From positions 1 through 51,111 of the IMG/VR virus record IMGVR_UViG_3300009786_000019: a DNA stretch of 51,111 nt; one strand, written 5' to 3'. The DNA comes from a virus. Taxonomy: Duplodnaviria; Caudoviricetes. Positions 4,143 through 17,521 of the stretch are shown piece after piece. Every line of letters begins with the position of its first letter. Within the stretch, counting starts at the first letter, position 1. The translations under genes and the position numbers were made by a program. Under the pieces are notes generated by a model. The model saw nothing but the letters and a program-made list of their open reading frames with translations. It was not told the DNA's origin and did not search any database.

Positions 4143-4433
4143 CTGGGGGACCCTAAAGTATGCGACTTTAAACGATTTAATAAGATAGTTAATCGCGGGT
4201 CAAGGATCATATCATTTTTCTGGTGATTATTTGCGAAGAACATGGCCCTTGTACTCGACTGACAGCCGCCGGGTCGCGGCCCGCGATGCGCTGCGCGGGC
4301 TGGATTCGACGGTTTCGATTAGCCTCGATTGCCGGAGGACCCGTGGAAGTTACTTTTAACGTATGGACTATCCCGGCAGGCTGCGGTCTGCGACGAATCG
4401 GGGAATGTGGAAGTTAACGTGATCACTTCCAAC

Positions 4434-4536
4434 TGGTCCGGGGATCGTGGATCGTGGATCGTGGATCGTGGTCCGGGGATCGTTACCCAGGTGACCTGGG
4501 TAAAGTCTCATACCGGGAACCGGGAACCGGGAACCG
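4434..4536. repeat. Heptamer tandem repeats and palindrome (candidate pac/terminus region)
   Basis: (GGATCGT)x4 at 4442-4469; inverted repeat TTACCCAGGT-G-ACCTGGGTAA at 4483-4503; (ACCGGGA)x3 at 4512-4532. Confidence 0.7.
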
Positions 4537-4541
4537 CGAGC

Positions 4542-4569
4542 AAAAAAAAGCCCGCACGGCGGCGGGCTT
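4542..4569 (-). terminator. Rho-independent terminator
   Basis: GCCCGC/GCGGGC stem plus U-tract after ORF 4587..5309. Confidence 0.85.
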
Positions 4570-4586
4570 GGGTAGATCGGGGAAGG

Positions 4587-5309: not shown

Positions 5310-5326
5310 GCGTTGCCCCTTGGGCT

Positions 5327-5371
5327 GTTAGTTGAGATTACATTCTACCAATCTATATGGGATAAACGCAA
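5327..5371 (-). promoter_or_regulatory. Sigma70 promoter + operator + leader seed
   Basis: TTGCGT-18-(TGG)TAGAAT; TATGGGA at 5356-5362; leader TCAACTAAC at 5327-5335. Confidence 0.7.
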
Positions 5372-5455
5372 TGAAGGCCCCCGGTCACAGAACTGGTAGG
5401 TTTGGACCACGGCCCACGGCCCTTGGGCGGCTTGTTTAACTGTCAAACACGGAGC

Positions 5456-5483
5456 AAAAAAAAGCCCGCACGTGGCGGGCTTT
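5456..5483 (-). terminator. Rho-independent terminator
   Basis: GCCCGC/GCGGGC stem plus U-tract; nearly identical to 4542-4569. Confidence 0.85.
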
Positions 5484-5496
5484 GGGAAGGGTAGGA

Positions 5497-6087
5497 TTAG
5501 TAGATGAGGCGAGATTTAACCTCGACACTATCGAGCGCGTCCTTGATAAGGTCCTCGATTTTTTCTGTGGCGATAGTTTGTGCGTCCTCTTTTGCGGTAT
5601 CGATTGCTTCACAAATCAAAGTCTGCACATCGTCGCGATCAACTAGTGTGCCCTCAACTTGCATATCTATAATGCGCTCGCTAACAACTTCCTCGATATC
5701 ACCAAGATCATCTTCGATCATCGTCTGCACATCGTCCCGCTCTACAAAAAGACCTTCATTTTGAAATGATTCCAGTTGCTGGCTCACTTTGACATAAAGC
5801 CAGTCATCAAAATGCGGGATGCTCTCGAACAAATTATACATCTGCTCTCGATGCTCAAAGATTGAGTCATTGACAACCTGCCTTTGCGAATTGGTCTGCT
5901 CATCGACGATATTTTGTGCAGTTGATAACTGTTCCTTAAGTTCTTTCACACGATCCATTAACTGATCGCGTTGCAGTTTGATCAGGGCTGAATCGTCTTC
6001 CTCTTTAACCAGAGTCTCGCCAGAAAAATGAATTGTAGCGCTGGGCTGGTCCTGCTTTTCGTTTTGGTTTTCGTTTTGCTTTTCCAT
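5497..6087 (-). CDS. Acidic coiled-coil hypothetical protein
   Basis: ATG at 6087 after GAGGA; internal repeat EGLFVERDDVQTMI / EGTLVDRDDVQTLI. Confidence 0.7.
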   Translation of the reverse strand: MEKQNENQNEKQDQPSATIHFSGETLVKEEDDSALIKLQRDQLMDRVKELKEQLSTAQNIVDEQTNSQRQVVNDSIFEHREQMYNLFESIPHFDDWLYVKVSQQLESFQNEGLFVERDDVQTMIEDDLGDIEEVVSERIIDMQVEGTLVDRDDVQTLICEAIDTAKEDAQTIATEKIEDLIKDALDSVEVKSRLIY

Positions 6088-6100
6088 TTTAAATCCTCGT

Positions 6101-6168
6101 TTAGTTGAAAGGTGCAACATCATTGCTGCACGTATGCGATTTTAGCAACCAACCTTGTAAAAAGTAAA
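6101..6168 (-). promoter_or_regulatory. Sigma70 promoter + operator + leader seed
   Basis: TTTACT-18-TAAAAT; TATGCGA at 6133-6139; leader CTTTCAACTAA at 6101-6111. Confidence 0.65.
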
Positions 6169-6171
6169 GCC

Positions 6172-6197
6172 AAAAAAAAGCCCGCACGTGACGGGCC
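6172..6197 (-). terminator. Rho-independent terminator
   Basis: GCCCG stem plus U-tract. Confidence 0.8.
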
Positions 6198-6213
6198 TTC
6201 TCATGGTTAAGGT

Positions 6214-6615
6214 CTACAAACCGGCTTCTTCGTCTATTGTTCCGCACTCGTCCCTGTAGACGGGATGCCATAACGTCTTAATAGGATCGCCCGGTTTGTG
6301 AGAATCACGCGCCCCTTGCCGAAATTCTAACTCCTCGTCGTAACTCAATTCCCGGAAAAGCAACTTTTGGTATGGTATCTGCTCGACGAATGGCAGATTG
6401 TCAGGGCTTTCGCTACAACGTAGAAAACCAGCCGCGTATCCATCCCATCTATCCGCAGTAGCATCGTGACCCAATCGTGACCCGCCCTGTTCCCTTATAT
6501 GGTCTGCCTTTACGCTGCACACCTCGGCAATGTAATCCATCAATCCGGTCAATTGCTCCTCATCAATAATAGACTCGATAAGGTCAAATCGTTTGTTATT
6601 CTGCAATACGTTCAT
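6214..6615 (-). CDS. Hypothetical protein
   Basis: 133-aa ORF with GAGGG SD, followed by a terminator. Confidence 0.7.
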   Translation of the reverse strand: MNVLQNNKRFDLIESIIDEEQLTGLMDYIAEVCSVKADHIREQGGSRLGHDATADRWDGYAAGFLRCSESPDNLPFVEQIPYQKLLFRELSYDEELEFRQGARDSHKPGDPIKTLWHPVYRDECGTIDEEAGL

Positions 6616-6618
6616 CTT

Positions 6619-6756
6619 TCAACCCTCTTCGTCAGTAAGCAATATTTTTTTCAGGTCAGGGACGGTTAATCCGGTTTCGCATGACAAATCTAAAAGTGAC
6701 ATGTTCATGTTTCGATCATAAAACTCACGTATTTCTGCGGGTGTCATTTCATTCAT
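6619..6756 (-). CDS. 45-aa small protein, possible HTH-like DNA binder
   Basis: Hand-translated MNEMTPAEIREFYDRNMNMSLLDLSCETGLTVPDLKKILLTDEEG; GAGG SD; below the ORF-track cutoff. Confidence 0.65.
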   Translation of the reverse strand: MNEMTPAEIREFYDRNMNMSLLDLSCETGLTVPDLKKILLTDEEG

Positions 6757-6770
6757 CTTTCAAGCCTCGT

Positions 6771-6815
6771 CGTTAGTTGAAAGCTAAGAGTATGCGATTT
6801 AAGCAATAGACACAA
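6771..6815 (-). promoter_or_regulatory. Sigma70 promoter + operator + leader seed
   Basis: TTGTGT-17-TACTCT; TATGCGA at 6791-6797; leader GCTTTCAACTAACG at 6771-6784. Confidence 0.6.
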
Positions 6816-6818
6816 GCC

Positions 6819-6847
6819 AAAAAAAAGGCCCCCATGATGGAGGCCCT
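6819..6847 (-). terminator. Rho-independent terminator
   Basis: GGCCTCCAT/ATGGGGGCC stem plus U-tract. Confidence 0.8.
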
Positions 6848-6863
6848 GAAAGGTTGGTGAAGT

Positions 6864-8036
6864 TTACGCGGCGATTTTGTCGAGCAATGCCCCCGCTTTG
6901 CGTTCAAGATTAACTCGCGCATCCTGATGCGGAATATCTCGCGCAATGGCAGTGATACCTTGGGCCGCATCCCACACATTACGAATCGGCTTTTGCTCCT
7001 CCTGAATGTGCCGAGCCATTGCAGCCTTTGCCATTCTGGCAGATAACCCGCCACGCTTAGTTAGAAACTCCAACGCATCGTCATCATCCTTGGCGATCTT
7101 CGCATCACGTGCCGCCTCGACTCCCGCTAACAAGGTGCTAGTGGAATGATGACTGTAGGTTTCCAGTGCTGGTGCCATTTCATCATAGAACCGATAGACC
7201 GCATTCTTGGTATGCCTGATTTTGATTTCCTCAAAATTCTCGACGCCCCATAGGTTCCGGTTCTGGCAGACCCCGCGCAAGTACATACAGGCAAGCCCGG
7301 CAGTTTTAGAACCTACCTCACTGTTCCACCAGTAAAATCCACGGAACACTAGATCAGGTTCGCCATTCGGAAGTTTGCCTATTTCAATGGGGTTCAAATC
7401 ATCGCAGAGAAAACCGAACATATCCCGGTCACTCGCAAACAAAGTGCTACCCGTGCTGGAATGCGGGTTATACGTGCCATTAACTGACATGCTGCCGGGC
7501 ACTTTCCACTGGCCCTCATTAGCTACCTTGACTACCGGCGCTAACATTTCACGATTCAAAATGCGGCCATAGTCTGGACCAGTGGCAGCCCGTAGATTAC
7601 CGCCGTCACGATGATCATACGTCTTGATGATTTCGCGGCCCCGGTTATGGCGTAATCCCCACGTCAAACAATCCGCAGCTAATGGTGCGGGCAGGTCTTT
7701 TATGTATCCCGCTGGGGCACCCGCTAGGGTTGCCAGTTGACCGGCTGACCAGTTGGTAGGTTCGCTGCTGATTACGGCACCCGTCTTAGGGCAGTCATAC
7801 TCTACGCGCAGTTCACCTTGACTGATGTTCTCTTGGTCAAATTTCCCGACGATGTTGAGTTTATGTGTATCAACTACGCGACTGGTCATACCTTGGCAAT
7901 CGGTATTAGCAAAGGCTACCAGTTCTTCCAACGTATCAAACCGCTCATCTTCCGGGCGGTTAGCGTAATTGCTGGCAAGGTGTGAACCTTCACTACTGAT
8001 GCCGTGCTGTATTGCTGATGTTTTATATGCATCCAT
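6864..8036 (-). CDS. DUF932-family protein
   Basis: NSEVG..LRGVCQN..IRHT motifs; ATG at 8036 after GAGGA. Confidence 0.7.
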   Translation of the reverse strand: MDAYKTSAIQHGISSEGSHLASNYANRPEDERFDTLEELVAFANTDCQGMTSRVVDTHKLNIVGKFDQENISQGELRVEYDCPKTGAVISSEPTNWSAGQLATLAGAPAGYIKDLPAPLAADCLTWGLRHNRGREIIKTYDHRDGGNLRAATGPDYGRILNREMLAPVVKVANEGQWKVPGSMSVNGTYNPHSSTGSTLFASDRDMFGFLCDDLNPIEIGKLPNGEPDLVFRGFYWWNSEVGSKTAGLACMYLRGVCQNRNLWGVENFEEIKIRHTKNAVYRFYDEMAPALETYSHHSTSTLLAGVEAARDAKIAKDDDDALEFLTKRGGLSARMAKAAMARHIQEEQKPIRNVWDAAQGITAIARDIPHQDARVNLERKAGALLDKIAA

Positions 8037-8058
8037 TTTGTAAATCCTCAAATTAAAA

Positions 8059-8125
8059 GTTAGTTGAATACCGGCAATAAAAAAACCGATATGCGAATCA
8101 TCCCATACCGGTTTATTTTTATCAA
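8059..8125 (-). promoter_or_regulatory. Promoter overlapping a palindromic operator/terminator hairpin, plus leader seed
   Basis: TTGATA-17-GATGAT; TATGCGA-ATCA-TCCCATA at 8090-8107; seed at 8059-8068. Confidence 0.6.
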
Positions 8126-8140
8126 CTACTTTTTGAAAAG

Positions 8141-8263
8141 TTATCTGTTTCGTTTACGGACCCTTTTTCTTTTCGGGGGCCTTTTCACAATATCTACCTG
8201 ATCCATCCTTTCTATCTCTTCCTTTGAGTAAAACAATCGTGCAATCCACGTCAAAAAAAACAT
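8141..8263 (-). CDS. 40-aa small protein with a basic C-terminus
   Basis: Hand-translated MFFLTWIARLFYSKEEIERMDQVDIVKRPPKRKRVRKRNR; GGAG SD; own promoter. Confidence 0.65.
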   Translation of the reverse strand: MFFLTWIARLFYSKEEIERMDQVDIVKRPPKRKRVRKRNR

Positions 8264-8277
8264 ACGTGCTCCGTCAA

Positions 8278-8321
8278 TTAGTTGAGCATGTATTGTATAG
8301 GAAATTATGGGATTTAATCAA
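8278..8321 (-). promoter_or_regulatory. Sigma70 promoter + tandem operator + leader seed
   Basis: TTGATT-18-TACAAT; TATAGGA at 8296 and TATGGGA at 8306; TCAACTAA at 8278-8285. Confidence 0.7.
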
Positions 8322-8719
8322 GGACTATCAGTGATTGCTTTGAACACTTCGTCGAAATGAAACGGTTGTGGCTGGTGCAAATAGGGCTTTAGCCTGACCC
8401 CCACTTCTGCCAGTTCAATAGCGTCCTGCGCTTGATACAAAAAAAGTTCTGCGGGTGTCTCTGAATTTTTTTGTTTGCGAATGAGAACCCATGCACTCCC
8501 GTGGGCATGGCGGGTTAACCAACTAATCTGGTGCGGGCGTAACCCTACCTTGTATGCCGTGATGACTTTGAGTTCAATGAAATGAAAAAGACCCTGCCTG
8601 TCACAGACACAAAGATCAGGTACACCGGCGGTAGCGGTACTTTCAATCCTAGTGGATTTCAGCCCCATCGTTGATGTCTTTAACCACCGTCTTATCTGGT
8701 TCCAAAAGTCCTTTTCCAA
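8318..8719 (-). CDS. PD-(D/E)xK nuclease (VRR-NUC/Holliday junction resolvase-like)
   Basis: GVPDL..FIELK..LRPHQISW motif. Confidence 0.8.
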   Translation of the reverse strand: MEKDFWNQIRRWLKTSTMGLKSTRIESTATAGVPDLCVCDRQGLFHFIELKVITAYKVGLRPHQISWLTRHAHGSAWVLIRKQKNSETPAELFLYQAQDAIELAEVGVRLKPYLHQPQPFHFDEVFKAITDSP

Positions 8720-9275
8720 CTTCGCCGCTGCTATCAGATTCTCCTTTTGGGGGTGTAATGTCTTTGATTACAGGGGCCGCGTACTGCTCCTTTAAATGTT
8801 CCAGTGCCTTTTGAACTTCTTCCTTGCTCATGCTGTCAATCGAGCCATGCCTTATCTCAGACTTGTTGACATAGATATCACCCTTCGCCTGACCTCGACG
8901 GTACTCCGCCTGAACTGCCGCAGAGTACGCCCCGTTTTGCAAAGCCGTATCCCGGATCAATTGCATGTCCCGCAAGTGTCGCTGATAAGTGATGCCAAAT
9001 TTCTGATCGAGTTCGTCCCGATAAGCCTTGATAGCAGAGACAACGTGGGGACTGATATGGGGGTTAGTCAACTCATACGCCCTAGTGTGCGCGGATGATG
9101 CTGGATACCCTGCATTGATAGCAGCTTCCCGCAAAGTAATCTGCCCATCGTTAGCTACGAGTTCTTTGACAAACAGTTCTTGCTTCCGAGTCAACGGACT
9201 CCGAGTAGATGATTTGGGCCTACCCCGCTTTCGTGGTACGGGGTCAGATTTTTTAGGAGCAGCTTTCCGTGGCAT
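8649..9275 (-). CDS. terS: Terminase small subunit
   Basis: LTRKQELFVKEL..EAAINAGY..AHTRAYEL HTH signature; N-terminal AT-hook RKRGRPK. Confidence 0.75.
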   Translation of the reverse strand: MPRKAAPKKSDPVPRKRGRPKSSTRSPLTRKQELFVKELVANDGQITLREAAINAGYPASSAHTRAYELTNPHISPHVVSAIKAYRDELDQKFGITYQRHLRDMQLIRDTALQNGAYSAAVQAEYRRGQAKGDIYVNKSEIRHGSIDSMSKEEVQKALEHLKEQYAAPVIKDITPPKGESDSSGEVGKGLLEPDKTVVKDINDGAEIH

Positions 9276-9319
9276 ATCAGTAGTTAACCTAAGTGAGTCG
9301 AGACAAATCTTAGTCTAAG

Positions 9320-9567
9320 CTATATAGAGATGTAAAATTATAAATAAATATTTTGATTTTCAGGCGCATTAAGGCACTTTCGCTATTTGAACCCTAAAAG
9401 GTTACATAATAGAGAAAACAAAGAAAAATAAGTAACCCAATAAGTAACCCATAAGTTATTGTTTTAGTTACCTATTGTATAGTGGTTACGTCAGTTACAC
9501 TGGTTACGGGTTGAAATTAAAAAAAATAAAAAAAATAATTCTCTGTCTATATAGGTAGAAGCGTAAC
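9320..9567. other. Putative replication origin
   Basis: AT-rich non-coding stretch with 8 GTAAC/GTTAC pentamers and CTATATAG palindromes near both ends (9320, 9547). Confidence 0.6.
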
Positions 9568-9575
9568 TTTCATTC

Positions 9576-9600
9576 AAAAAAAACCCCGCCGAAGCGGGGT
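9576..9600 (-). terminator. Rho-independent terminator
   Basis: ACCCCGC-UUCG-GCGGGGU plus U-tract. Confidence 0.9.
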
Positions 9601-9610
9601 AAGGTTAGGG

Positions 9611-10363
9611 TTAAAATTCGGCACATAAATCAAATTTACGCAAGTGATGTTCCGGGTGCCGTGGATGGTGTTTCGCGTATTCTGCGACGAGGTATGCAAC
9701 ACCCTCAAGGCTATACGCAAAATGAGCGTCGTAAGCAGGGTCTTCGTCTATCCACTCTGGGCAGTTGATGTACCACCTTTCAAACTCGGGTTCATGTTCA
9801 AAAGCGATGTCCCACTTTTTGGCGAACCGTCTGATCTTCGACACTTCAGCATTATGCTTTCGCTTTGATGCTTCGACCAACTTTGGTTTCTCGGCCAACT
9901 CCGTTTTGCCTTCAGCGGTTAGTCCAACTCTGCCAGAACAAGTGAGTTCCCAAACGTCCGACACTCTGGCACGACGCTTAACCACTTCTCCTTTGATGCT
10001 CACTATGTCTTTTGATATGCCGCAAACGTAACGTTTACCTGATACCAGTTGATAGTGATTACCGGCAACCAGTAAAAACACTCGCCCTGCCGTTCGATCT
10101 TCTTTTGATTTTTTCAGCCATTGCGTAAGCGTTGGCCGGTTTTTGCGATCAGAGGAAAAAACTTCAGTTGCTTCAATGTTCCAGTATTTTTTCAAAGCCT
10201 GTAACAAGACTGAACGGTTAGTTCCTCGAACTGCTCTCTGACCGCTGACCAATCGGATGGCTAATGCCGCCATATTAGTGTCGCAACCAGTGAGAGCAGA
10301 GATAGCGGCGGGGCCGCAGTATCCATTGTGGCCTTTGGGCCGGTTTACTTTTTGAATTTTCAT
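9611..10363 (-). CDS. Early protein with a possible papain/C39-like Cys-His domain
   Basis: GYCGPAAISALTG...LLVAGNHYQLV. Confidence 0.5.
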   Translation of the reverse strand: MKIQKVNRPKGHNGYCGPAAISALTGCDTNMAALAIRLVSGQRAVRGTNRSVLLQALKKYWNIEATEVFSSDRKNRPTLTQWLKKSKEDRTAGRVFLLVAGNHYQLVSGKRYVCGISKDIVSIKGEVVKRRARVSDVWELTCSGRVGLTAEGKTELAEKPKLVEASKRKHNAEVSKIRRFAKKWDIAFEHEPEFERWYINCPEWIDEDPAYDAHFAYSLEGVAYLVAEYAKHHPRHPEHHLRKFDLCAEF

Positions 10364-10429
10364 AATTGAAAACCGTAAAGGGTTACCCCCTCACGTCCTT
10401 TAAGTAAGTTGAAAGCGTTTGTATCCACA

Positions 10430-10462
10430 TTGTTAAAGAGCGGATGGGACCGGGTCCCACCG
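10430..10462 (-). promoter_or_regulatory. rrn/nut-type boxA preceded by a hairpin (antitermination site)
   Basis: Minus strand GGTGGGAC-CCG-GTCCCATC immediately followed by CGCTCTTTAACAA. Confidence 0.65.
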
Positions 10463-10477
10463 TTGACACTATTTGAT

Positions 10478-10522
10478 AATGTCAATATTGACATTGTCTC
10501 ATATACCAACCGTTAAGTCCAA
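10478..10522 (-). promoter_or_regulatory. Promoter with operator and perfect 18-bp palindrome
   Basis: TTGGAC-18-(TGA)GACAAT; TCTCATA at 10497-10503; AATGTCAATATTGACATT at 10478-10495. Confidence 0.5.
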
Positions 10523-10567
10523 CTATTTATTTTCTTCAATTAAATCAACAACTTAGGAGGGGTCTTA

Positions 10568-10750
10568 TCAGCCTTGTTGAACTCGCCGCCACGCTTCATC
10601 AATTTCTTCCGAGGTGTAGGGCATCATAAAATTTGAACGGTCCGTTGAAAAATACTTCGCAGCGGTGGCTTCATCGTGACTCACGGTCCGTGCAAAGCGC
10701 ACCACGGCCTCGATAATTCTAACGGCCTCTTTGTAGCTTAACTTTTCCAT
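10568..10750 (-). CDS. Hypothetical protein
   Basis: 60-aa ORF translationally coupled (TAATG) to the upstream ORF. Confidence 0.65.
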   Translation of the reverse strand: MEKLSYKEAVRIIEAVVRFARTVSHDEATAAKYFSTDRSNFMMPYTSEEIDEAWRRVQQG

Positions 10751-11196
10751 TAGGGTTTCTCCCGGGTAGTGACTTCGTTGAAAAGTTCTTGTTCGGTTGG
10801 TGAAAGCGCTCGTTCATTAATTTCCAAAAGAAATTTCTTCATCTTTTCGCGCATCCCTTGGTAATCGGCAATCGGCCACAACTCAGTTTTTTCAACGCCG
10901 TAGTAGATGAACTGCGCCCCACCACTCAATAGTCTTGGTGTTTCCGCGATATCTTCTTCAAGAACGTCATATTCTTGTCCCAAGTACATCGCGCCGTCGT
11001 TATAGTCGATACCGCTGATCAACAGATGTTTGTTGAGTTCCGGGCACCAGTATACTTCGTTCATCTCTACTGGTTGGCTTTCCATCCTTTTGTTGTAAAA
11101 CATTTTTCTCAGGTGCGCCCAAGTGCTGGCTTCTTCAAAAACATCCCTCTTTTTTCTCACTTGTAGCCAAGTGCTGCCTTCTTCAAACACATCCAT
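10750..11196 (-). CDS. Hypothetical protein with a duplicated N-terminus
   Basis: 148 aa; GGAG SD; 16-aa repeat DVFEEGSTW.. / DVFEEASTW.. Confidence 0.7.
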   Translation of the reverse strand: MDVFEEGSTWLQVRKKRDVFEEASTWAHLRKMFYNKRMESQPVEMNEVYWCPELNKHLLISGIDYNDGAMYLGQEYDVLEEDIAETPRLLSGGAQFIYYGVEKTELWPIADYQGMREKMKKFLLEINERALSPTEQELFNEVTTREKP

Positions 11197-11211
11197 ACCA
11201 TTCTCCGGTTT

Positions 11212-11254
11212 GTTAGTTGAGTAAGAAGTATAGGACGGTATGAGATAATGTCAA
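11212..11254 (-). promoter_or_regulatory. Sigma70 promoter + tandem operator + leader seed
   Basis: TTGACA-16-TATACT; TATAGGA at 11229 and TATGAGA at 11239; TCAACTAAC at 11212-11220. Confidence 0.75.
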
Positions 11255-11261
11255 TTAGAAT

Positions 11262-11336
11262 AAAAAAACCCCGCGAGGAGCGGGGTCTGAGGGGGTAAAA
11301 GTCCCTCCGAAGAGGGACACGCTTTCAACTAACGTT
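11262..11336 (-). ncRNA. Candidate trans-acting antisense sRNA (~75 nt)
   Basis: Promoter TTGCAT-17-TATCCT (11370-11342); 5' seed CGUUAGUUGAAAGCGU; GUCCCUC-UUCG-GAGGGAC hairpin; terminator ACCCCGC-UCCUC-GCGGGGU plus U-tract; seed complementary to seven early leaders. Confidence 0.65.
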
Positions 11337-11362
11337 CTTTGAGGATATCCGTGATGATATCG

Positions 11363-11521
11363 CTATGCAACTTTTTCTGAGGCTTTCCGCGTGTGCGTGT
11401 AAAGTTCTTGCACTTTCCGTAGCTGACCACTAATGGTCCGGCCCTCGCGTTTCGCGTCCCGTTTAATCTGTTCATAGACGGCTTTCGGCACCAGTACCGA
11501 CTTCCATTTATTGGTATCCAT
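11363..11521 (-). CDS. Ribbon-helix-helix (Arc/CopG-like) repressor, 52 aa
   Basis: KWKSVLVPKAVYEQIKRDAKREGRTISGQLRK fits the strand-helix-G-x-T-helix pattern; ATG at 11521 after GGAG. Confidence 0.7.
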   Translation of the reverse strand: MDTNKWKSVLVPKAVYEQIKRDAKREGRTISGQLRKVQELYTHTRKASEKVA

Positions 11522-11540
11522 GTGTTTCTCCAAACTGATG

Positions 11541-11575
11541 TCTGCGATTATATGGGAACATATATAATAAGTCAA
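11541..11575 (-). promoter_or_regulatory. Near-consensus sigma70 promoter with an autoregulatory operator
   Basis: TTGACT-17-TATAAT; TCTGCGA at 11541 and TATGGGA at 11551 overlap the -10. Confidence 0.8.
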
Positions 11576-11599
11576 AAAAAGCCCCGTCGAAACGGGGCT
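11574..11599 (-). terminator. Rho-independent terminator after DNA polymerase
   Basis: AGCCCCGT-UUCG-ACGGGGCU plus U-tract. Confidence 0.85.
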
Positions 11600-11661
11600 A
11601 AGGACCCTTGCAGAGAGTCACGCGCTTGAAAGAGCTGACCACAAACAGGGGGCCAATGCAA

Positions 11662-13554
11662 TTATTTTGCTTCGCCCCACGAGTCACCAATCTCGACATC
11701 GCATAAACTAGGTACTTCCAAAGGCACCGCCTCAGTCATAATCTTGGCTACCGCTTCTGCTTCGGCTTTATTTTTCACGGACATCGCTATCTCATCGTGA
11801 ATCTGAAGCATGGGCAATCGTCCGGTGTTATAGATATCGACCATCGCTTTCTTGGTCATGTCAGCAGCAGACGCTTGGATCAGGCGGTTCAGGGCTTTGT
11901 AGGTAAACGCCCGCTTTAATCGCGTGGTTTCACCGTACTCTTTGACCGCATCTTTATACGGCATCGCTTTGCTCATCCCAAAAGTATCGGGTTCCCAGAG
12001 ATCGAACCTGCATTTCCTGCCCAGAATGCTGCGGATCGAGCCACTGGCTGACCGGTCATTCAAGCGGTTTTGCACACCTTGCATCAAACCTTTCACAAAC
12101 GGTACGCGGTTGTGGTATTGCTTGACCAAATCCTTGGCCTCATCCACGGGGATATCTAGCTGTTCACTCAGCTTGTTAACACCCATACCGTACATCATGC
12201 CTAGATTGATCGTCTTAGCCTGTTTGCGCTTAATTTTCGCCATCTCTGCGACCATCGTGTGGAAGTCAGTTGTGGCATCGTTACAATAGCCGTCCACAAA
12301 CTCCTGTACGCCCTCTAACGGGATTCCCCGCGACTGCCCATATATGTGTGCATAATGAACCAAGATCCGTGGTTCCTGCTGAGAGAAGTCTATGGCCGCC
12401 CACTGCTCACCTTCTTCCGGTAGAAACAGACTGCGGATCATGGGGCCAATCTCAGGATCTCTGGCGGGAATTTGTTGCAGGTTAGGATTGTTCATGCTGA
12501 TCCTTCCTGATACCGTACCCCCATCGTCTGAACGAATTTGGTTAATGTGACTATGGATGCGGCCATCTGTGTGCGTGTGACGCATGATTGTGTTGATGAA
12601 GGTCCCGCTAGTCTTGTTCAGGTTCCTAGCTTCAAGGATGAGCTTCGCGAGTGGGGCCTGATGCTCCTGAAGGAAGAGTTTCGTGAACGACGGACTGCCA
12701 TTTTTGGTCTTTGGGAATGTGATCCCGCACTTGTCGAAAGCCTTGGCAACCGATTGTGCTGCCCAAATCTCCACATCCATCCCAGCTTTTTTCTTGATTT
12801 CTTTGATGACGGCCCGTTCCCGTTTGAGAATTTCATCTCGCGTTCGCTCAACTCGGTCAGTGTCCACTCGGACACCCTTCATAGTCATTTCGACGAGGAC
12901 TGGGAGGAGATCAAGTTCGAGATTAACAATGTCCCAAAGGTCTTCCTTGCCAAGCTCGACCCGGAAGTATTGCCAAAGTTCAAGCGCAAGAACCGCGTCA
13001 GTCTCAGCGTAGGGACCGACATACATGGACGGCATCTTCCACATCTCAGCCTTCGGATCGACACCAAATTCCTTCGCAGCAGCGACTAAATCTTTTTCGG
13101 ATTTTGTTTTGTTGAGGTAGTCGTAAGAGCAAGCGTTGAGCGAATAACTAAATCGGTTTTCGTCCAACAGACTGGCGATCAGCATGGTATCTATGATCCG
13201 CCCATTGACTTCAAAGCCACTGGCGCGGAGCCAACCCAGATCATATTGGGCGTTGTGCATGACTTTCTCGCACGGCAACTTTAATAACTTGGTCATCCAT
13301 TTGTCGACAATGCGCTTGTCGATGTTGCCCCCGCCAAAATGTGCGATGGGCACGTAACCCTTCCAATCCTCCGTGGCAATTGCGTATCCGCAGATTTCGC
13401 CATTATTGGTTGCCCAACCCGGTCCCTTTGTTTTCAGGTCCGGGTCCCGCGTTTCGAGGTCAATCGCTATACGTTTTGCGCTGGACAGATCGGGTAGCTC
13501 AAGCGGCGGCACCCACTCCGTCTTTGGTGGAAACATTGCCATCTGTAATGTCAT
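11662..13554 (-). CDS. polA: DNA polymerase family A with 3'-5' exonuclease
   Basis: ExoI DLET; motif A DFSQQEPR; motif B RKQAKTINLGMMYG; motif C QIHDE. Confidence 0.95.
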   Translation of the reverse strand: MTLQMAMFPPKTEWVPPLELPDLSSAKRIAIDLETRDPDLKTKGPGWATNNGEICGYAIATEDWKGYVPIAHFGGGNIDKRIVDKWMTKLLKLPCEKVMHNAQYDLGWLRASGFEVNGRIIDTMLIASLLDENRFSYSLNACSYDYLNKTKSEKDLVAAAKEFGVDPKAEMWKMPSMYVGPYAETDAVLALELWQYFRVELGKEDLWDIVNLELDLLPVLVEMTMKGVRVDTDRVERTRDEILKRERAVIKEIKKKAGMDVEIWAAQSVAKAFDKCGITFPKTKNGSPSFTKLFLQEHQAPLAKLILEARNLNKTSGTFINTIMRHTHTDGRIHSHINQIRSDDGGTVSGRISMNNPNLQQIPARDPEIGPMIRSLFLPEEGEQWAAIDFSQQEPRILVHYAHIYGQSRGIPLEGVQEFVDGYCNDATTDFHTMVAEMAKIKRKQAKTINLGMMYGMGVNKLSEQLDIPVDEAKDLVKQYHNRVPFVKGLMQGVQNRLNDRSASGSIRSILGRKCRFDLWEPDTFGMSKAMPYKDAVKEYGETTRLKRAFTYKALNRLIQASAADMTKKAMVDIYNTGRLPMLQIHDEIAMSVKNKAEAEAVAKIMTEAVPLEVPSLCDVEIGDSWGEAK

Positions 13555-13937
13555 TCTCCCCACACCTTAGTTTTAGTGCCACCAAAATAAGGTACTGCCA
13601 ATCCCTCCTCGATCAACGTTTCGCAAATGTTAACGCCGGTTATACCTTTATCGTCAACGGTATAGGGTGCGGCTAACACACGCCCATACTTGTCTAACTC
13701 CTCACTGACGAACCGTACTTTTTCGCCGCATAGTTCTTCAACGCGGGCCGTGGCCTGAAGACCAAGCTTTTTCTCTGCGAGATTACGGGTCCGTTTTTCG
13801 GGGGTGTCGATCCCCAGAAAGCGCAGCCTTTTCTTTTTCAGCACTATGCCAAAGCCAAGGTCCACATCCACATCAATGGTATCGCCGTCCACCACGCGCA
13901 CCACCGTCCCTTCATAGTAATAAAGAGGGTTACTCAT
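13551..13937 (-). CDS. Thermonuclease (SNase-like)
   Basis: RVVDGDTI..RFLGIDTPE..DKYGRVLA. Confidence 0.9.
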   Translation of the reverse strand: MSNPLYYYEGTVVRVVDGDTIDVDVDLGFGIVLKKKRLRFLGIDTPEKRTRNLAEKKLGLQATARVEELCGEKVRFVSEELDKYGRVLAAPYTVDDKGITGVNICETLIEEGLAVPYFGGTKTKVWGE

Positions 13938-14275
13938 TTTTCATTATCCTCACACGGAGCACCATCTAAATTGATTTTCAGAGTTTCAAGCAAATCCAAT
14001 TCGCTTTCGGTGGCTTTAAAGAAAAAGGCAGGGGTTCCATCCCCCATAGAGGCTCCGGCTATGTTGTATTCGTAATATTCGATGGCTTCGTCATAGGACA
14101 TTCCATCACCTATGAGGAGGTTGATAACCTTATCCTCATCGTACAGAAGGCAGTCGTCGTGACCCGATTTCCTACAAAGCCCTATAATTGCTTCATCAAA
14201 GCCATCTATCTTTAATACCTTACCATCCAAGTCCCAACGTCCCGACTCGTCATATTCATACAGTGAATCATTCAT
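13934..14275 (-). CDS. Hypothetical protein
   Basis: 113 aa; DGFDEAIIG..EAIEYYEYNI; ATGA-coupled on both sides. Confidence 0.7.
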   Translation of the reverse strand: MNDSLYEYDESGRWDLDGKVLKIDGFDEAIIGLCRKSGHDDCLLYDEDKVINLLIGDGMSYDEAIEYYEYNIAGASMGDGTPAFFFKATESELDLLETLKINLDGAPCEDNEK

Positions 14276-15786
14276 AACTGGTAGCTCCTGTTGTGGTCTT
14301 GGGGTTCGACCAAAAATAAATTTTTTAAACTCCGTGTTATTGCAACATAAAAGGTTCTGTGCATGTCATCGGGGTTCAAGCTCATTTGTTGATCGGCGGC
14401 GGGGGATAGATCGGTGAACACAACAACGTTTTCCGCCTCCCCACCTTTGGCACCGTGGATCGTGGACACTGTGATACGCGGCACGGCGGTAAACTGCTCG
14501 CCCCGGCGTAACATGGCGATAATGTAAGCCCTGTCCTGTTCGGGCAGCTTGTCCATCGCCTGATGCCATAGCATGTCTTTGGTAGCCACTAAGCCATGAT
14601 GTTCCTGCAACTCCTGAAGATTTACCATATCCTCATCGTCGAGGGACGGCAACTTCTTAAAGCCGCGTAACACCCTTGTTTTTAGGGACATAAAGCTATA
14701 AATCTTCCGTGCAGTATCCCCTGTGATGGGACGGCCCTTTCTTAGTTCTTCCCAACCAATCACCGACGCGCTGATTTTTTCGCTGATGCTCCTGAAGCCA
14801 CGGTAGGTAAATAGGTAGCCACTGGATTTCAAATCCTGTTGTACCGGCTGTAGCAGGTACCCAGCCTGACCTAAAATGAGCCATGTGCCGTGGGCCATGT
14901 CCAGTTCGTCAACATTGTCTATTCGCTCTACCCGCCCCTCTTCCTTACGGGGTTCGTATTTTTTGGGGAACCGGTTGCGGATGCGGTTCACAACCTGCTC
15001 TGCAAGACTATGTACCTTGCTGGGTATCCGGTAGCTTTGGGTCAGGGTTTCTACCCCACCCTCCAGATTAATGAAATGATCAACGTCAGCCCCTGCCCAA
15101 CGATAGATGGCTTGGTCATCATCCCCCGCGCAGTACATCTTCTCTGACTTATCATCGAGCAGATGGGCAATGTCCCACTGTAAAGGACTGAGATCCTGCG
15201 CTTCGTCCAAAAAGGTTAACTTAAAATGTGGGCAGTACCGCGCACCAGACTCCACAAACACGGCAAGCATGTCGGTGAAATCGTACAGATTGAAGCGGTG
15301 CTTGTATTCACGTAGCGTCTTGTCCACGTAATCAACCAGATTCCATTCCTCGTCGATGTCGCTGATGTTGTATTGTTCTCTGAGCGATACTTTTCGTAGA
15401 CGGGCCAGATTGATGACCCCAAGGACAGGGTCAGCCGCGCTGTTGATTGACGGCAGATCATCGTCCACCGTGGATTTTGCGCCGTTCAGCGTGACCCCAC
15501 AAACCCGTGACAGTTCCCGATAGTTTTCGGCTTGCATCACCTGATCCCGTTTGATGTCGGTTAGGGTCAAGGCGAGACTGTGCAGTGTCCTGAAGTTTGG
15601 CAGGTCCTCTTTTGGGCAGAGATCAAACCGTTTAGCAGCACGTTCTTTGGCCTCGTTCGCGGCTTTGCGCGTAAAAGCCAGAAACGCAATCTCCGTGGGC
15701 CGTGTGCCCTGCTCCAAGGCTTGGTCAACCATATCCAAAAGTGTCGTAGTCTTACCCGTGCCGGGTGGACCGAAGATACGGAACAT
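14272..15786 (-). CDS. SF1 UvrD/Rep-like helicase
   Basis: GPPGTGKT, DEAQD, GDDDQAIY, STIHGAKGGE, YVAITR. Confidence 0.92.
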   Translation of the reverse strand: MFRIFGPPGTGKTTTLLDMVDQALEQGTRPTEIAFLAFTRKAANEAKERAAKRFDLCPKEDLPNFRTLHSLALTLTDIKRDQVMQAENYRELSRVCGVTLNGAKSTVDDDLPSINSAADPVLGVINLARLRKVSLREQYNISDIDEEWNLVDYVDKTLREYKHRFNLYDFTDMLAVFVESGARYCPHFKLTFLDEAQDLSPLQWDIAHLLDDKSEKMYCAGDDDQAIYRWAGADVDHFINLEGGVETLTQSYRIPSKVHSLAEQVVNRIRNRFPKKYEPRKEEGRVERIDNVDELDMAHGTWLILGQAGYLLQPVQQDLKSSGYLFTYRGFRSISEKISASVIGWEELRKGRPITGDTARKIYSFMSLKTRVLRGFKKLPSLDDEDMVNLQELQEHHGLVATKDMLWHQAMDKLPEQDRAYIIAMLRRGEQFTAVPRITVSTIHGAKGGEAENVVVFTDLSPAADQQMSLNPDDMHRTFYVAITRSLKNLFLVEPQDHNRSYQL

Positions 15787-15989
15787 CAGTCGTCGCAGTT
15801 GGGGCAGCTACCTCTGGTGTAGTCCCCCTTTGCAAACCAGTTCTCCTCGGTCTGACTTTTCATTCGCTCAAACACCTGACGAACACGTTCACGGGACAAA
15901 CCCAGACGCTCACCGATAGCGGTGAACGTCATGTCCTCGACATGTCGCATTCGGTAAATTTCTGCATTTCTATCTGATTTTTCCTGCAT
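15786..15989 (-). CDS. Sigma70 region-4-like HTH protein
   Basis: TFTAIGERLGLSRERVRQ. Confidence 0.75.
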   Translation of the reverse strand: MQEKSDRNAEIYRMRHVEDMTFTAIGERLGLSRERVRQVFERMKSQTEENWFAKGDYTRGSCPNCDD

Positions 15990-17521
15990 TAGAACACTGC
16001 CTCTTTCGTTTCAAATTGTGGTGGGTCTATTTCAAGGTCCATTGCTTCAAAGGCGGGGATCACCCAGACCCGCACACTTCTTCCTTTGATTTTCAACACC
16101 GTTGATTCGCCATGAATGTCTCGTAGCCGCTGTGCAATCCGGTGCGATTTGTACTCAAACCATTTGTTTTTCTTCAGGTAGTTTTCAAAATCCTTCAATC
16201 GGAAATACGTCCGGTTGATCTCTTCATCCGTCCACGGTCTGCGTAACAGAATCTCTTCTTTATCCTGCGCCTGCTGCATGTGGCGGCAGAACTCCTCAAG
16301 GTAGTCATAGAACTGTCCACTGACGCTCGCGTCCTGCGATACCTCTACTATGGCGGATTCATTCTCTTTCATGTCGTTCAACAGCGAACTGATACGCCCT
16401 TCCCACGTCTGCTTCACAACACTGCGCGGCATGAAGTTGAGTTGCTCAAGACAGGCTTTTTGAAAAGCTGTCTGATTCATCAAGCCCTCAGTATCTAGCT
16501 CTAAAGGTTCTGAATTTACGTCCATAAACCAGACCGGCGGGGTGCTGTTGTATTTTCTGAGGTTGCCAATGCTGGCCCCCTGCACGGCAGACCCCACACC
16601 AAACTTTCGGGTATAGCAAAGCTCTTTGTTGCAGTGAGCGTTGATCGGTGCGTCACTACACTTATAGGCGTAGTCTTTGCGCTGCACCTGTTTCGCCACT
16701 ACGTTAACTTCGTTCAGCGGCAAGGGCGGAACGAGGTATTGCATGTTGTAGCTTAAAATCTCGCTCTCCCAGCTATCCGGGAACGCTTTTCGCAGATATA
16801 CCCCAATGTTAAATAAACCATTGTTGCGACCACCCTCGCTGATCTTGTCAGTACAAAGGATTTGAAGGCACGGCGGGCCGTCTGCCAGTAATTTCTTTTC
16901 TTTTACTTTGACGACCTGTAAGCCAATTACCTGCTCTGGGGTCTGGACGTGGGCTTCGTAAATCTCAAAAAACTCTTGAATCGTAGCGGAGGTGCCATCA
17001 TCCTGAATCGCGTACCGCAATCCCTCTTCTGCATTAAAATAAGGAAGATTGAGAAAGTTACCCACATCGCCGCGATCTAAATGCAGCTTGATCTGTTTCG
17101 GAAATATCTCGCTTTCGCCATAACCCAGCGCCGCAGCCATACACTGCAACGCTTTCTGCATATCTTTTGCTGCGACCCACTCTTTGGCAAACAAGAAACA
17201 ATGTGCGCCGCCGGACTTACTGCGACACACCACCAAAGGTAATTTCATTTTCCTAATCTTTTCAACAAGAAGTTTGTGATCGAGAGGGTATTGGTCTACA
17301 TCAATGCACCCCCACCGACACTCATCGTCCCGGTTAATTGGGATTATCCCAATCCCGGTCTTGCCTTTTAAATGGTTCTCCCACAAGACCGTGGTCCGTG
17401 ATTCACGCACGACGGCGGCTTTGCCTTGCATTTTGCCACTAGCACTTTCCTTTTCGATCCGGAAAGTGCCGTACGCTTCTTGGAGTCCATCAAAAATATC
17501 AATAAATTTTTGGACACTCAT
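15989..17521 (-). CDS. AEP-family primase (primase-polymerase) with PriCT domain
   Basis: WGCIDVD, SKSGGAH, PPCLQ..GGRNNGLF. Confidence 0.8.
   Translation of the reverse strand: MSVQKFIDIFDGLQEAYGTFRIEKESASGKMQGKAAVVRESRTTVLWENHLKGKTGIGIIPINRDDECRWGCIDVDQYPLDHKLLVEKIRKMKLPLVVCRSKSGGAHCFLFAKEWVAAKDMQKALQCMAAALGYGESEIFPKQIKLHLDRGDVGNFLNLPYFNAEEGLRYAIQDDGTSATIQEFFEIYEAHVQTPEQVIGLQVVKVKEKKLLADGPPCLQILCTDKISEGGRNNGLFNIGVYLRKAFPDSWESEILSYNMQYLVPPLPLNEVNVVAKQVQRKDYAYKCSDAPINAHCNKELCYTRKFGVGSAVQGASIGNLRKYNSTPPVWFMDVNSEPLELDTEGLMNQTAFQKACLEQLNFMPRSVVKQTWEGRISSLLNDMKENESAIVEVSQDASVSGQFYDYLEEFCRHMQQAQDKEEILLRRPWTDEEINRTYFRLKDFENYLKKNKWFEYKSHRIAQRLRDIHGESTVLKIKGRSVRVWVIPAFEAMDLEIDPPQFETKEAVF

Follow-up and report, generated by a model that had tools for sequence, protein, structure and literature searches.

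The window, by which we mean the whole 51,111-nt stretch of phage DNA that was analyzed, carried a small ribbon-helix-helix gene on its minus strand, followed by a short stretch with two hairpins and a U run. Further along the same strand lay seven genes or short reading frames whose leaders contained a common motif, and an inverted copy of this motif was located behind the ribbon-helix-helix gene. The coordinates of these features are given in Table 1. Of 22 sequencing runs listed, none of which was an RNA run, 20 (from 17 studies) contained the phage, and relatives were found by the hundred.

Table 1. The candidate small-RNA unit, the ribbon-helix-helix gene and the matched leaders in the window
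Feature	Positions	Strand	Remarks
Ribbon-helix-helix gene, 52 aa	11363..11521	-	Pfam RHH_5, E 1.5e-6; seed inside its 3' untranslated region
Promoter-like site of ribbon-helix-helix gene, TTGACT-17-TATAAT	11547..11575	-	11/12 consensus positions
Possible small-RNA promoter, TTGCAT-17-TATCCT	11342..11370	-	From sequence; first hexamer overlaps the upstream gene's stop codon
Candidate small RNA, short form	11262..11337	-	5' seed, hairpin 1, second unpaired stretch, terminator hairpin, U7 tail; from sequence, fold and terminator scan
Seed 1, AACGUUAGUUGAAAGCGU in the RNA	11319..11336	-	Sole inverted motif copy in the window
Hairpin 1, GUCCCUC-UUCG-GAGGGAC	11301..11318	-	In fold; pair changes relative to L201
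Seed 2, UUACCCCCUCA	11288..11298	-	Complement of leader 10383-10393
Intrinsic terminator and U7 tail	11262..11288	-	Common to the ribbon-helix-helix mRNA; terminator scan, fold
Target 1, 9 nt, leader of 148-aa gene (start 11196)	11212..11220	-	6 nt past a TTGACA-16-TATACT promoter-like site
Target 2a, 12 nt, leader of 250-aa gene (start 10363)	10407..10418	-	
Target 2b, 11 nt, seed 2 complement, leader of 250-aa gene (start 10363)	10383..10393	-	Inside a local hairpin
Target 3, 8 nt (9 with a G-U pair), ahead of 40-aa reading frame (start 8263)	8278..8285	-	
Target 4, 10 nt, ahead of 390-aa gene (start 8036)	8059..8068	-	
Target 5, 14 nt, ahead of 45-aa reading frame (start 6756)	6771..6784	-	Strongest duplex, -22.2 kcal/mol
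Target 6, 11 nt, ahead of 196-aa gene (start 6087)	6101..6111	-	
Target 7, 9 nt, ahead of 240-aa gene (start 5309)	5327..5335	-	

The candidate unit contained no ATG, and its single GTG was not preceded by a Shine-Dalgarno sequence. An initial annotation of this DNA had predicted a hairpin-hairpin-U-tail architecture, and the minimum-free-energy fold (-31.6 kcal/mol, z = -3.41, equalled by 1 of 200 shuffles) contained both hairpins and the U7 tail; the second hairpin was also scored as a terminator by the terminator scan (positions 11288 to 11266). The stretch is a short non-coding unit, or an mRNA 3' end, and its last element is an intrinsic terminator followed by a U tail. The Rfam check that had been proposed as a test of novelty was run on both the window and its relatives. 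At the gathering score, the window matched Mu-gpT-DE alone and no family at the candidate unit, and the unit was likewise without a match in eight related loci (140 kb). A local Rfam search to E = 10 gave 17 weak matches, headed by anti-hemB (20.3 bits versus 49.5), and the c4 and CI antisense RNA families were absent among them.

The ribbon-helix-helix stop codon lies at positions 11363 to 11365, and the next terminators, which are the sole terminators downstream of the gene, lie at 11301 to 11318 and 11266 to 11288; the inverted motif copy sits between the stop codon and these terminators. Because the gene is preceded by a promoter-like site that matches 11 of the 12 consensus positions and the only terminators come after the seed, transcription of the ribbon-helix-helix gene would include the seed. 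The terminator is common to the candidate RNA and to the upstream protein-coding mRNA, and the candidate RNA may just as well represent the 3'-terminal part of that mRNA. The short form had been assigned a promoter of its own, TTGCAT-17-TATCCT. This sequence is present at positions 11370 to 11342, but it is weak: by our count, it matches the consensus at 7 of 12 positions, and it was unlisted by our promoter scan, which had a threshold of 9 of 12 positions. The aligned site in L201, a relative with a 95% identical polymerase, is TTGCGT-17-TATTAT, a better match than that in the window phage. The leader of the ribbon-helix-helix gene, which the initial annotation called a repressor gene, had been said to lack the seed motif, which agrees with the sequence. 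We retrieved 160 related loci, most of them fragments, via the neighboring DNA polymerase, and 149 of these contained a ribbon-helix-helix homologue. Promoter-like sites were found 7 to 30 nt ahead of the seeds in relatives. In roughly half of the examined relatives, 270 to 1600 nt separated the ribbon-helix-helix gene from a unit that had a promoter-like site of its own. As a separate observation, a second motif, ATCBCATA, had 9 matches versus 3.5 expected and clearly behaved as a promoter-linked DNA site.

All of the coordinates and match lengths given for the seven leader sites in the initial annotation (9, 11, 14, 10, 8, 12, and 9 nt) were reproduced. The motif has the form (GCUU)UCAACUAAC(G) and is located at the 5' ends of seven phage mRNAs that are predicted to be separately transcribed, as the targets are found behind their own promoter-like sites with terminators between them. 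The exact 9-mer GTTAGTTGA had five matches in the window, four on the plus strand, all in leaders of minus-strand genes, and one on the minus strand at the seed, which agrees with the claim of a single full inverted copy; 0.43 matches were expected, and none of 100 shuffles reached five. Three further leader matches (8, 11, and 12 nt) did not contain the exact 9-mer, and all of the sites were in leaders of one 6-kb block. Four of the motif copies in the window were located at a fixed distance of 6 to 8 nt from the -10 element, and in six of the seven leaders, 2 to 9 nt separated the complementary stretch from the Shine-Dalgarno sequence. The claim that the whole island is targeted stood for seven of the eight promoter-proximal leaders between positions 11254 and 5300, but the small-terminase unit (start 9275) was without the motif. 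The complementarity claimed for the second unpaired stretch was confirmed over 11 nt of the leader at 10383 to 10393: TTACCCCCTCA matched only positions 11288 to 11298 on the minus strand and 10383 to 10393 on the plus strand of the window (2 matches versus 0.07 expected). Similarly, the stretch AUCCUCAAA (11341 to 11349), which would be present in a longer form of the RNA, is the complement of 8044 to 8052 and partly of 6093 to 6098, as had been claimed. The long form also adds affinity for any Shine-Dalgarno sequence, and the target ranking becomes less specific.

When duplex energies with the 18-nt seed were ranked for 59 predicted leaders, the proposed targets had ranks 1, 2, 4, 6, 7, and 8. 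Several mRNAs were matched at or near the ribosome-binding site beyond chance. With one mismatch allowed in GTTAGTTGA, the excess was weak (19 matches versus 12.1 expected, with 4 of 100 shuffles reaching 19). In a ranking of duplex energies over the whole genome, two targets stood out (-22.2 and -20.2 kcal/mol). Five of the seven duplexes in the window were short (8 to 10 bp), A/U-rich, and in the range of -11 to -15 kcal/mol, and sites in coding sequences reached -15 to -18 kcal/mol. The 9-nt A/U-rich sites were not above this coding background in the whole-genome ranking, and therefore the case rests on position and comparison instead of energy.

The comparison with L201 covered a fragment of a 50.8-kb record. 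A 22-nt block containing the seed (11319 to 11340) was identical in L201 at all 22 positions, and the flanks of this block differed by a 26-nt indel and many changes. Hairpin 1 of L201 showed two compensatory pair changes, G:C to A:U and U:A to C:G, and led directly into the U run; seed 2 was absent. A TCAACTAA-type leader was not found in the 1.85 kb of downstream sequence of L201. The exact 14-mer of the seed was found in 119 stretches of viral_contigs, and the unit itself was found by BLAST only in L174, a 99.7% identical fragment. Two of the 14-mer matches (L091 and L136) were located within coding sequence and were set aside as chance matches. A near-DNA search of phage records gave no match. 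Contigs from four DNA runs over positions 4500 to 11700 revealed cassette swaps in the island, with joints, for example, at 6622 to 6765 and 9599 to 10559, and no difference at 11262 to 11370 among the differences listed.

The initial annotation had suggested covariation of seed and target across related phages as a check, and the motifs were indeed found to differ between phages and to match within each. At least ten different seeds were located directly upstream of a terminator, and each was complementary to the downstream ribosome-binding-site motif of the same phage. Examples of such seed and leader pairs are CUCCGUAGUUGA with AACTACGGAG, CCUCAUAAAAA with TTTTTATGAGG, CUCCAUGU with ACATGGAG, and GUUUUCUCCCAAAG with CTTTGGGAGAAAAC. 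A cross table of 14 small RNAs and 14 leader sets was block-diagonal; the window seed matched five of its own leaders and none in the other 13 sets. In 39 non-duplicate loci, seed CCCGUAGU was found with 27 CTACGGG leaders versus 1 CTACGGA leader and seed UCCGUAGU with 20 CTACGGA leaders versus 2 CTACGGG leaders; in these raw counts, which ignore kinship and include near-duplicates, seed and target changed together.

Unrestricted k-mer scans of whole loci were too noisy, and scans restricted to leaders were used instead. Specifically, 8-mers located at most 50 nt ahead of a terminator stem were compared, irrespective of any motif, with their reverse complements in ribosome-binding-site leaders of the same locus. 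At least three leaders were matched in 23 of 161 sources and at least four in 13; the other 138 sources, many of which had little downstream sequence, yielded two matches or fewer. At the level of three or more leaders, reversed 8-mers yielded no source and same-sense 8-mers yielded one, and complemented 8-mers yielded seven sources with exactly three leaders and none with more. G-U pairs at the edges of the duplexes were weakly positive (43/153 in leaders versus 37/222 in background).

In relatives, matches of at least 10 nt ended 3 to 10 nt ahead of the start codon and covered the Shine-Dalgarno sequence, and the distance from the motif to the best promoter-like -10 element varied from 3 to 62 nt. 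Some copies of the motif were located 3 to 9 nt past an upstream stop codon, and many leaders had a hairpin directly ahead of the motif. As the distance to the start codon was kept and the distance to the -10 element was variable, the motif in relatives is tied to the ribosome-binding site and not to the promoter. In an alignment of 37 distinct units of the YCCSGUAGU class, the invariant columns were CCGTAGT and one terminator G only, and the mean column identity was 49%. The seed was predicted to be more open than the rest of the unit (0.67 versus 0.37), which held for 28 of the 37 units; by alignment and prediction, then, the seed is conserved and accessible. RNAalifold found no consensus structure in this alignment, yielding three spurious pairs only, because the hairpins vary in length and do not align. 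Neither of two cultured relatives gave a clear signal: HTVC023P had nothing at the level of 8-mers and one A/U-rich 7-mer with four leader matches, and HTVC027P had nothing at 8-mers and at most two leader matches at 7-mers. A candidate of the same layout, with the seed 10 nt after a stop codon, was found in DSL-LC04, which is described as a metagenome-assembled phage, not a cultured one, in the available text of PMC10611076.

We conclude that the unit is most likely a trans-acting antisense small RNA that acts as a translational repressor for a block of phage genes, and we place the probability of this reading at about two in three. Positions 11262 to 11337 of the minus strand would yield a small non-coding RNA of about 75 nt, either transcribed from the weak promoter over the ribbon-helix-helix stop codon or derived from the 3'-terminal part of the ribbon-helix-helix transcript. 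The unpaired 5' stretch CGUUAGUUGAAAGC would pair in trans with the motif in the seven mRNA leaders, and the second unpaired stretch would pair again with one of them. This pairing would most likely lower translation initiation, and perhaps mRNA stability, for the small genes between the DNA polymerase and terminase genes, and one RNA would thereby set the output of a whole gene class. It is from the complementarity and its excess over chance, the terminator, the conserved seed, and the co-variation of seed and leader that we infer the production of the RNA, its pairing in the cell, and its repressive effect. The base-pairing idea at the core of the initial annotation received strong independent support from the matched pairs in relatives and from the seed being the sole conserved block of the unit, but its statement that the RNA silences translation is better worded as may silence, as the pairing in the window stops 2 to 9 nt ahead of the Shine-Dalgarno sequence and short, A/U-rich duplexes account for five of the seven.

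The same geometry raises an alternative that we consider unlikely, although it deserves some weight: the RNA may be real and paired with the leaders, but it may activate or time the gene block instead of repressing translation. It could do so by protecting the mRNAs from 5'-end-dependent decay, by creating a site for a double-strand-specific RNase, or by opening leader hairpins. In the window phage and in the relative L202, the motif occupies the 5' end of the transcript, where it begins about 6 to 8 nt past the -10 element and does not extend as far as the Shine-Dalgarno sequence; the hairpins directly ahead of the motif in many relatives, and the position of the seed 2 target within a leader hairpin containing a GAGGGGG stretch, point the same way. 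In most relatives, however, the complementarity covers GGAG or GGGAG and ends 3 to 10 nt before the start codon, which is the usual geometry of repression, and in the long form, AUCCUC additionally extends over the Shine-Dalgarno sequence in two or three of the window targets.

The remaining explanations dispense with a regulatory RNA. If the motif were a DNA site for a phage protein such as the ribbon-helix-helix protein, bound in either orientation, the inverted copy would be an extra operator and the RNA complementarity would be incidental. A drifting protein specificity would also predict co-variation of all copies, and the fixed spacing of four window copies from the -10 element and the promoter-linked ATCBCATA motif are in keeping with such a site. 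We nevertheless regard it as improbable, because the motif in relatives keeps its distance to the start codon and not to the promoter, some copies directly follow a stop codon, and the many copies all have one orientation and are in transcribed leaders. The inverted copy is always within a short, terminator-ended non-coding stretch and never at a promoter. The orientation control (23 sources for the reverse complement versus 1 for the same sense at three or more leaders) and the compensatory changes in hairpin 1 beside the seed also argue against a DNA site. Least probable of all, and in our estimate very improbable, is that the stretch has no regulatory role. In that case, the ribbon-helix-helix gene would just end in a 3' untranslated region with a double terminator, and the complementarity would be a relic of, for example, an inverted leader cassette. 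In favor of this reading, strains in other samples have exchanged cassettes within the mosaic island, and the leaders resemble copies of one promoter-leader cassette; but a relic would not have kept all 22 nt unchanged amid rearranged flanks, and it would not be found again in relatives in at least ten different matched versions.

Regulation by a trans-acting antisense RNA, the reading we favor, has partial parallels in known systems. In the c4 RNA of P1 and P7 and the CI RNA of P4, unpaired stretches (a'/b') pair with same-strand sequences located at a ribosome-binding site or close to it. The c4-type seed and its target differ between related phages and set specificity, as in P1/P7 heteroimmunity. 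The candidate resembles these RNAs in being a short phage-encoded RNA (about 77 nt there) with a same-strand complement at or near a ribosome-binding site. c4 itself is listed in a table of PMC12197685 as a trans-acting 77-nt RNA that targets ant. Unlike c4 and CI, which belong to temperate elements and are cut from the one operon that they regulate, the candidate would act on seven separately promoted and terminated mRNAs that do not share an operon transcript with it. In addition, a scan of 38 reading frames found no integrase, and the Rfam searches found no curated antisense-RNA family of that kind at the unit.

Hfq-type small RNAs combine a short seed with a terminator hairpin that is followed by a U tail. 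Like the bacterial multi-target RNAs of this type, the candidate has a conserved unpaired seed at its 5' end or close to it, an intrinsic terminator with U7, and several mRNAs matched by 8 to 14 nt on the ribosome-binding site or directly ahead of it, but here the regulator and all of its predicted targets are phage genes, and the targets have one leader motif, as if from one cassette. Small RNAs derived from mRNA 3' ends are a known class, according to the accessible part of PMC9438474. The candidate is similar to these in that its seed lies between a stop codon and a common terminator, with a possible internal promoter over the stop codon, and it differs in that many units in relatives, about half of those examined, are distant from the ribbon-helix-helix gene and come with a promoter-like site of their own.

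The T4 RegA protein is a translational repressor of many phage mRNAs that belong to the same temporal class and binds loosely defined A/U-rich sites. It is the closest functional analogue, as one phage factor would occupy the ribosome-binding regions of many mRNAs, but RegA is a protein and recognition here would be by base pairing. P22 sar is located in a region with ribbon-helix-helix repressors. The available text of a 2025 review (PMC12197685) describes sar and lambda OOP as short phage RNAs that block or destabilize a phage mRNA by pairing. Unlike these RNAs, which are encoded on the opposite strand of a single target, the candidate unit is on the strand of its targets, overlaps none of them, and is located 40 nt to 6 kb away. 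VpdS of vibriophage VP882, according to the same text, is a trans-acting phage small RNA with a length of about 50 nt and with effects on both phage and host mRNAs (PMC12197685). The candidate would likewise be a trans-acting small RNA encoded by a phage; VP882 is a temperate, quorum-sensing phage, and the part of the review on VpdS describes no targeting of a gene block via a shared leader motif (PMC12197685).

Our literature search found no published description of such a system. Within the available text of the 2025 review, the targets of the phage small RNAs are either single phage genes or genes of the host, almost all of these RNAs are from temperate phages or prophages, not one of the few RNAs of virulent phages has several phage genes as targets, and none is described as being aimed at a common leader motif of its own gene block (PMC12197685). 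The temporal gene tables of PMC12753301 might bear on early genes in a distant relative.

A further, speculative proposal, which we think doubtful, is that seeds and leaders together serve as a rapidly diversifying address code in phage-phage competition. If a phage of the same type entered the cell, the RNA of the resident phage would block the ribosome-binding regions of this gene class in the newcomer, and relatives would escape via a joint change of leader motif and seed. Compatible with this proposal, at least ten matched specificities were found among phages whose polymerases are 63 to 95% identical, in a mosaic island that swaps cassettes. If true, it would define immunity groups among abundant, apparently lytic marine phages and, in the absence of lysogeny, would be the RNA counterpart to P1/P7 heteroimmunity.

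The proposed repression of the gene block can be tested with reporters and compensatory mutations, and cultivation of the host is unnecessary. If real, it would be a simple RNA mechanism that switches a whole class of phage genes and whose specificity can be read from the sequence. It would also provide a natural collection of orthogonal seed-leader pairs. Relatives of this abundant marine phage show the arrangement again, and the mechanism, if real, would make gene classes predictable in phages that have not been cultured.

Comparison with related phages lent good support to a candidate trans-acting small RNA (sRNA) in the window, encoded on the minus strand at 11262 to 11337, whose unpaired seed was complementary to a motif repeated in leaders of the phage's own genes. 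The window was a complete virus record of 51,111 bp with terminal repeats and a G+C content of 46%, and all of its long reading frames were on the minus strand. Because the portal gene was split over the record ends, the record is a circular or permuted assembly opened within that gene. By polymerase, the nearest named phages were DSL-LC04 (56%), a lake phage whose genome was reported as a metagenome assembly (PMC10611076), and the pelagiphages HTVC023P (51%) and HTVC027P (49%). HTVC027P is a distant relative, and its biology served as context only; this type was described as lytic, with host RNA polymerase needed throughout infection and with early genes that were all of unknown function (PMC12753301).

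Coordinates of features in the window and related loci, with seed and leader motifs of relatives; gene order is along the minus strand
Feature	Position	Strand	Details
Primase	15989-17521	-	
Helicase	14272-15786	-	
Endonuclease gene		-	between helicase and DNA polymerase A
DNA polymerase A	11662-13563	-	
Ribbon-helix-helix gene, 52 aa	11363-11521	-	Pfam RHH_5, E 1.5e-6
Block, 6.6 kb	after ribbon-helix-helix gene	-	small genes mostly of unknown type, plus small terminase
Small terminase	8649-9275	-	inside block
Large terminase	2688-4142	-	
Portal gene	3-1058 and 49602-51068	-	split over record ends
Head, tail, lysis genes		-	last in gene order
Palindrome	10479-10494		perfect, 16 nt, ATGTCAATATTGACAT; between two block units; overlaps TTGACA hexamers pointing in both directions
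Non-coding, A/T-rich, ~320 nt	9280-9600	-	ahead of small terminase; repeated GTAAC / GGTTAC words, long T runs; possibly packaging site or origin
Non-coding, ~430 nt	4150-4580	-	ahead of large terminase; tandem heptamers GGTTCCC ~3x and CCACGAT 4x
Rfam Mu-gpT-DE RNA motif	42713-42765	-	64.9 bits (gathering score 49); just downstream of major head gene (42829-43740)
Hairpin ahead of leader motif	window 6112-6131; L014 about 11525-11561; L063 about 18070-18096; L070 about 13550-13572		
ATC(C/G/T)CATA	5356-5363, 6133-6140, 6791-6798, 8100-8107, 8306-8313, 11239-11246		also in relatives L013, L014, L017, L020
Related locus L014			seed UCUCCGUAGUUGA; leader (TTC)AACTACGGAG; 5 copies
Related locus L011			seed UCCCGUAGUUGA; leader AACTACGGGA; 6 copies
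Related locus L063			seed CCUCAUAAAAA; leader TTTTTATGAGG; 4 copies
Related locus L060			seed CUCCAUGU; leader ACATGGAG; 5 copies
Related locus L070			seed GUUUUCUCCCAAAG; leader CTTTGGGAGAAAAC
Related locus L071			seed UAAUGUGU; leader ACACATTA
Related locus L066			seed UCUCCAUUGUUAA; leader TTAACAATGGAGA
Related locus L270			seed UGUUCUCCAAUA; leader TATTGGAGAACA
Related locus L251			seed UCCUAUAUAAAAUG; leader CATTTTATATAGGA
Related locus L202			seed AAGUUAGUUGUAC; leader CAACTAAC(TTA); class closest to window

Re-checking confirmed every coordinate in the initial annotation. The motif GTTAGTTGA occurred four times on the plus strand (5327, 6772, 8059, and 11212) and once on the minus strand (11325); 0.43 matches were expected, and none of 100 shuffles reached five. 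When one mismatch was allowed, the excess was marginal. As minus-strand RNA the sense copies read (GCUU)UCAACUAAC(G), and they were located 6 to 8 nt past a -10-like hexamer in four cases, with a Shine-Dalgarno sequence 2 to 9 nt downstream in six of seven. The proposed target range, the whole early island, held in part: of the block's eight promoter-proximal leaders, seven contained the motif and the one of the small-terminase unit did not, and calling these genes early is a guess from promoter-like sites and a distant relative. Contigs from four other samples indicated that the block (4500-11700) was mosaic between strains, with whole cassettes skipped or replaced; for example, 6623-6764 was absent in three runs, which joined the motif at 6771-6784 to the next gene, and 9600-10558 was absent in one.

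The inverted copy was located between the ribbon-helix-helix stop codon (11363-11365) and two hairpins, the second of which was called as a terminator with a U7 tail. The predicted 76-nt RNA had a folding energy of -31.6 kcal/mol (z = -3.41). Its second unpaired stretch, UUACCCCCUCA, had exactly one complement in the genome, the 10383-10393 leader with which pairing had been proposed. The promoter suggested for the unit, TTGCAT-17-TATCCT, was not called by the promoter scan and matched the consensus at 7 of 12 positions by our count; the aligned position in L201, a metagenome relative with a 95% identical polymerase, read TTGCGT-17-TATTAT, and most relatives had a promoter-like site 7 to 30 nt ahead of the seed. 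The ribbon-helix-helix gene had an 11/12 promoter-like site at 11575-11547, and the terminator scan found no terminator between this site and the seed, so the seed probably belongs, at the least, to the 3' end of that mRNA. Should this long form exist, AUCCUCAAA, located just ahead of the seed, would form a correctly oriented second helix with the 8036 gene, covering its Shine-Dalgarno sequence (predicted 10 bp, internal loop, and 9 bp); the helices predicted to be added at the 6087 and 6756 genes were shorter.

The polymerase (63 to 95% identical) was used to fetch related loci, 80 each from viral and metagenome contigs. The window's own motif was missing from nearly all 160, and the arrangement recurred with other seed and leader sequences. 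Specifically, when the most repeated leader 8-mers adjoining a Shine-Dalgarno sequence were picked, their reverse complement had a single same-strand occurrence, within a short non-coding segment that lay downstream of the polymerase and ended in a terminator. The more distant DSL-LC04 had the same layout at 26669-26703, where UUCCUGUAUG lay 10 nt past a stop codon and was followed by a strong terminator, and four leaders (17102, 25049, 25280, and 25869) carried ATACAGGAGAAA. A ribbon-helix-helix gene followed the polymerase in 149 of the 160 loci, with the sRNA unit 36 to 1616 nt past it; thus, the pair was often, though not always, adjacent.

In an unbiased scan, we tallied, for 8-mers no more than 50 nt ahead of a terminator stem, the same-locus leaders containing the reverse complement. 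Of 161 sources, 23 reached at least three leaders and 13 at least four; the other 138 had at most two hits, and many of them had little sequence downstream of the polymerase. Reversed 8-mers never reached three leaders, complemented 8-mers reached three in seven sources and never four, and same-sense 8-mers reached three once. Seed/target covariation, which the initial annotation had put forward as a check, was evident in a block-diagonal cross table of 14 sRNAs and 14 leader sets, in which the window seed matched five leaders in its own set and no leader in any of the remaining 13. The largest class (37 distinct units) had a variable-sequence 5' hairpin, a seed predicted to be more open than the remainder, and a terminator; mean column identity was 49%, and the only invariant columns were CCGTAGT and one terminator G. 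Within this class (39 non-duplicate loci), the leader was GGG for C-type seeds by 27 to 1 and GGA for U-type seeds by 20 to 2, counts that ignore kinship.

Co-variation of this kind would also be expected from a DNA-binding protein whose specificity drifts, but four observations argued against that reading. In relatives, the motif kept a constant position with respect to the start codon, covering GGAG and ending 3 to 10 nt ahead of the codon, whereas it lay anywhere between 3 and 62 nt from the best -10, and there were copies 3 to 9 nt past a stop codon without a good promoter. The copies did not behave like an orientation-independent protein-binding site: wherever there were several, all read in the direction in which the leader is transcribed, the single inverted one always preceded a terminator and never lay at a promoter, and the orientation controls of the scan were clean. 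L201 and the window shared an identical block, AAAGAACGTTAGTTGAAAGCGT, preceded by a 26-nt indel that forms a 5' hairpin in L201, and hairpin 1 beside the seed differed by two compensatory pair changes, as expected of RNA; neither the second seed nor the second terminator of the window occurred in L201. A test of G-U pairing at the edges of the duplexes (28% versus 17%) leaned weakly the same way.

Another motif, ATC(C/G/T)CATA, came directly after the -35-like hexamer at most of the block's promoter-like sites (nine matches versus 3.5 expected, 0/100 shuffles). It formed operator-like inverted repeats, TATGSGAT ... ATCSCATA, both in relatives and at 8095-8112, and the conserved neighboring ribbon-helix-helix protein is an obvious candidate to bind it.

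In this phage, five of the seven predicted duplexes were only 8 to 10 bp and A/U-rich, with energies no better than those of sites in coding sequence, yet the proposed targets ranked 1, 2, 4, 6, 7, and 8 among 59 predicted leaders. Because pairing in the window ended short of the Shine-Dalgarno sequence, repression was less certain here than in relatives, and a live alternative is that pairing stabilizes the mRNA 5' end or triggers its processing. In many of the target leaders, the segment from the promoter-like site to the motif contained a stable hairpin, in some cases with a U run, which would leave only the motif and Shine-Dalgarno sequence unpaired in a 5' leader that is very short.

A cis-antisense RNA was ruled out. 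The proposed mode of action resembles that of multi-target trans-acting sRNAs, and the layout fits sRNAs derived from mRNA 3' ends. The mode of action also resembles that of the c4 and CI RNAs of P1, P7, and P4, but the unit's targets are on separate transcripts; this difference, the lack of any Rfam family at threshold over the unit in the window and eight related loci (the proposed novelty check), and the absence of temperate signs in the window (no integrase in 38 reading frames scanned) place it outside the c4/CI family. The nearest functional analogue is the T4 protein RegA. Since nothing equivalent was found in the literature considered, including the table of phage small RNAs in a 2025 review (PMC12197685), the unit would represent a novel form of a known sRNA type.
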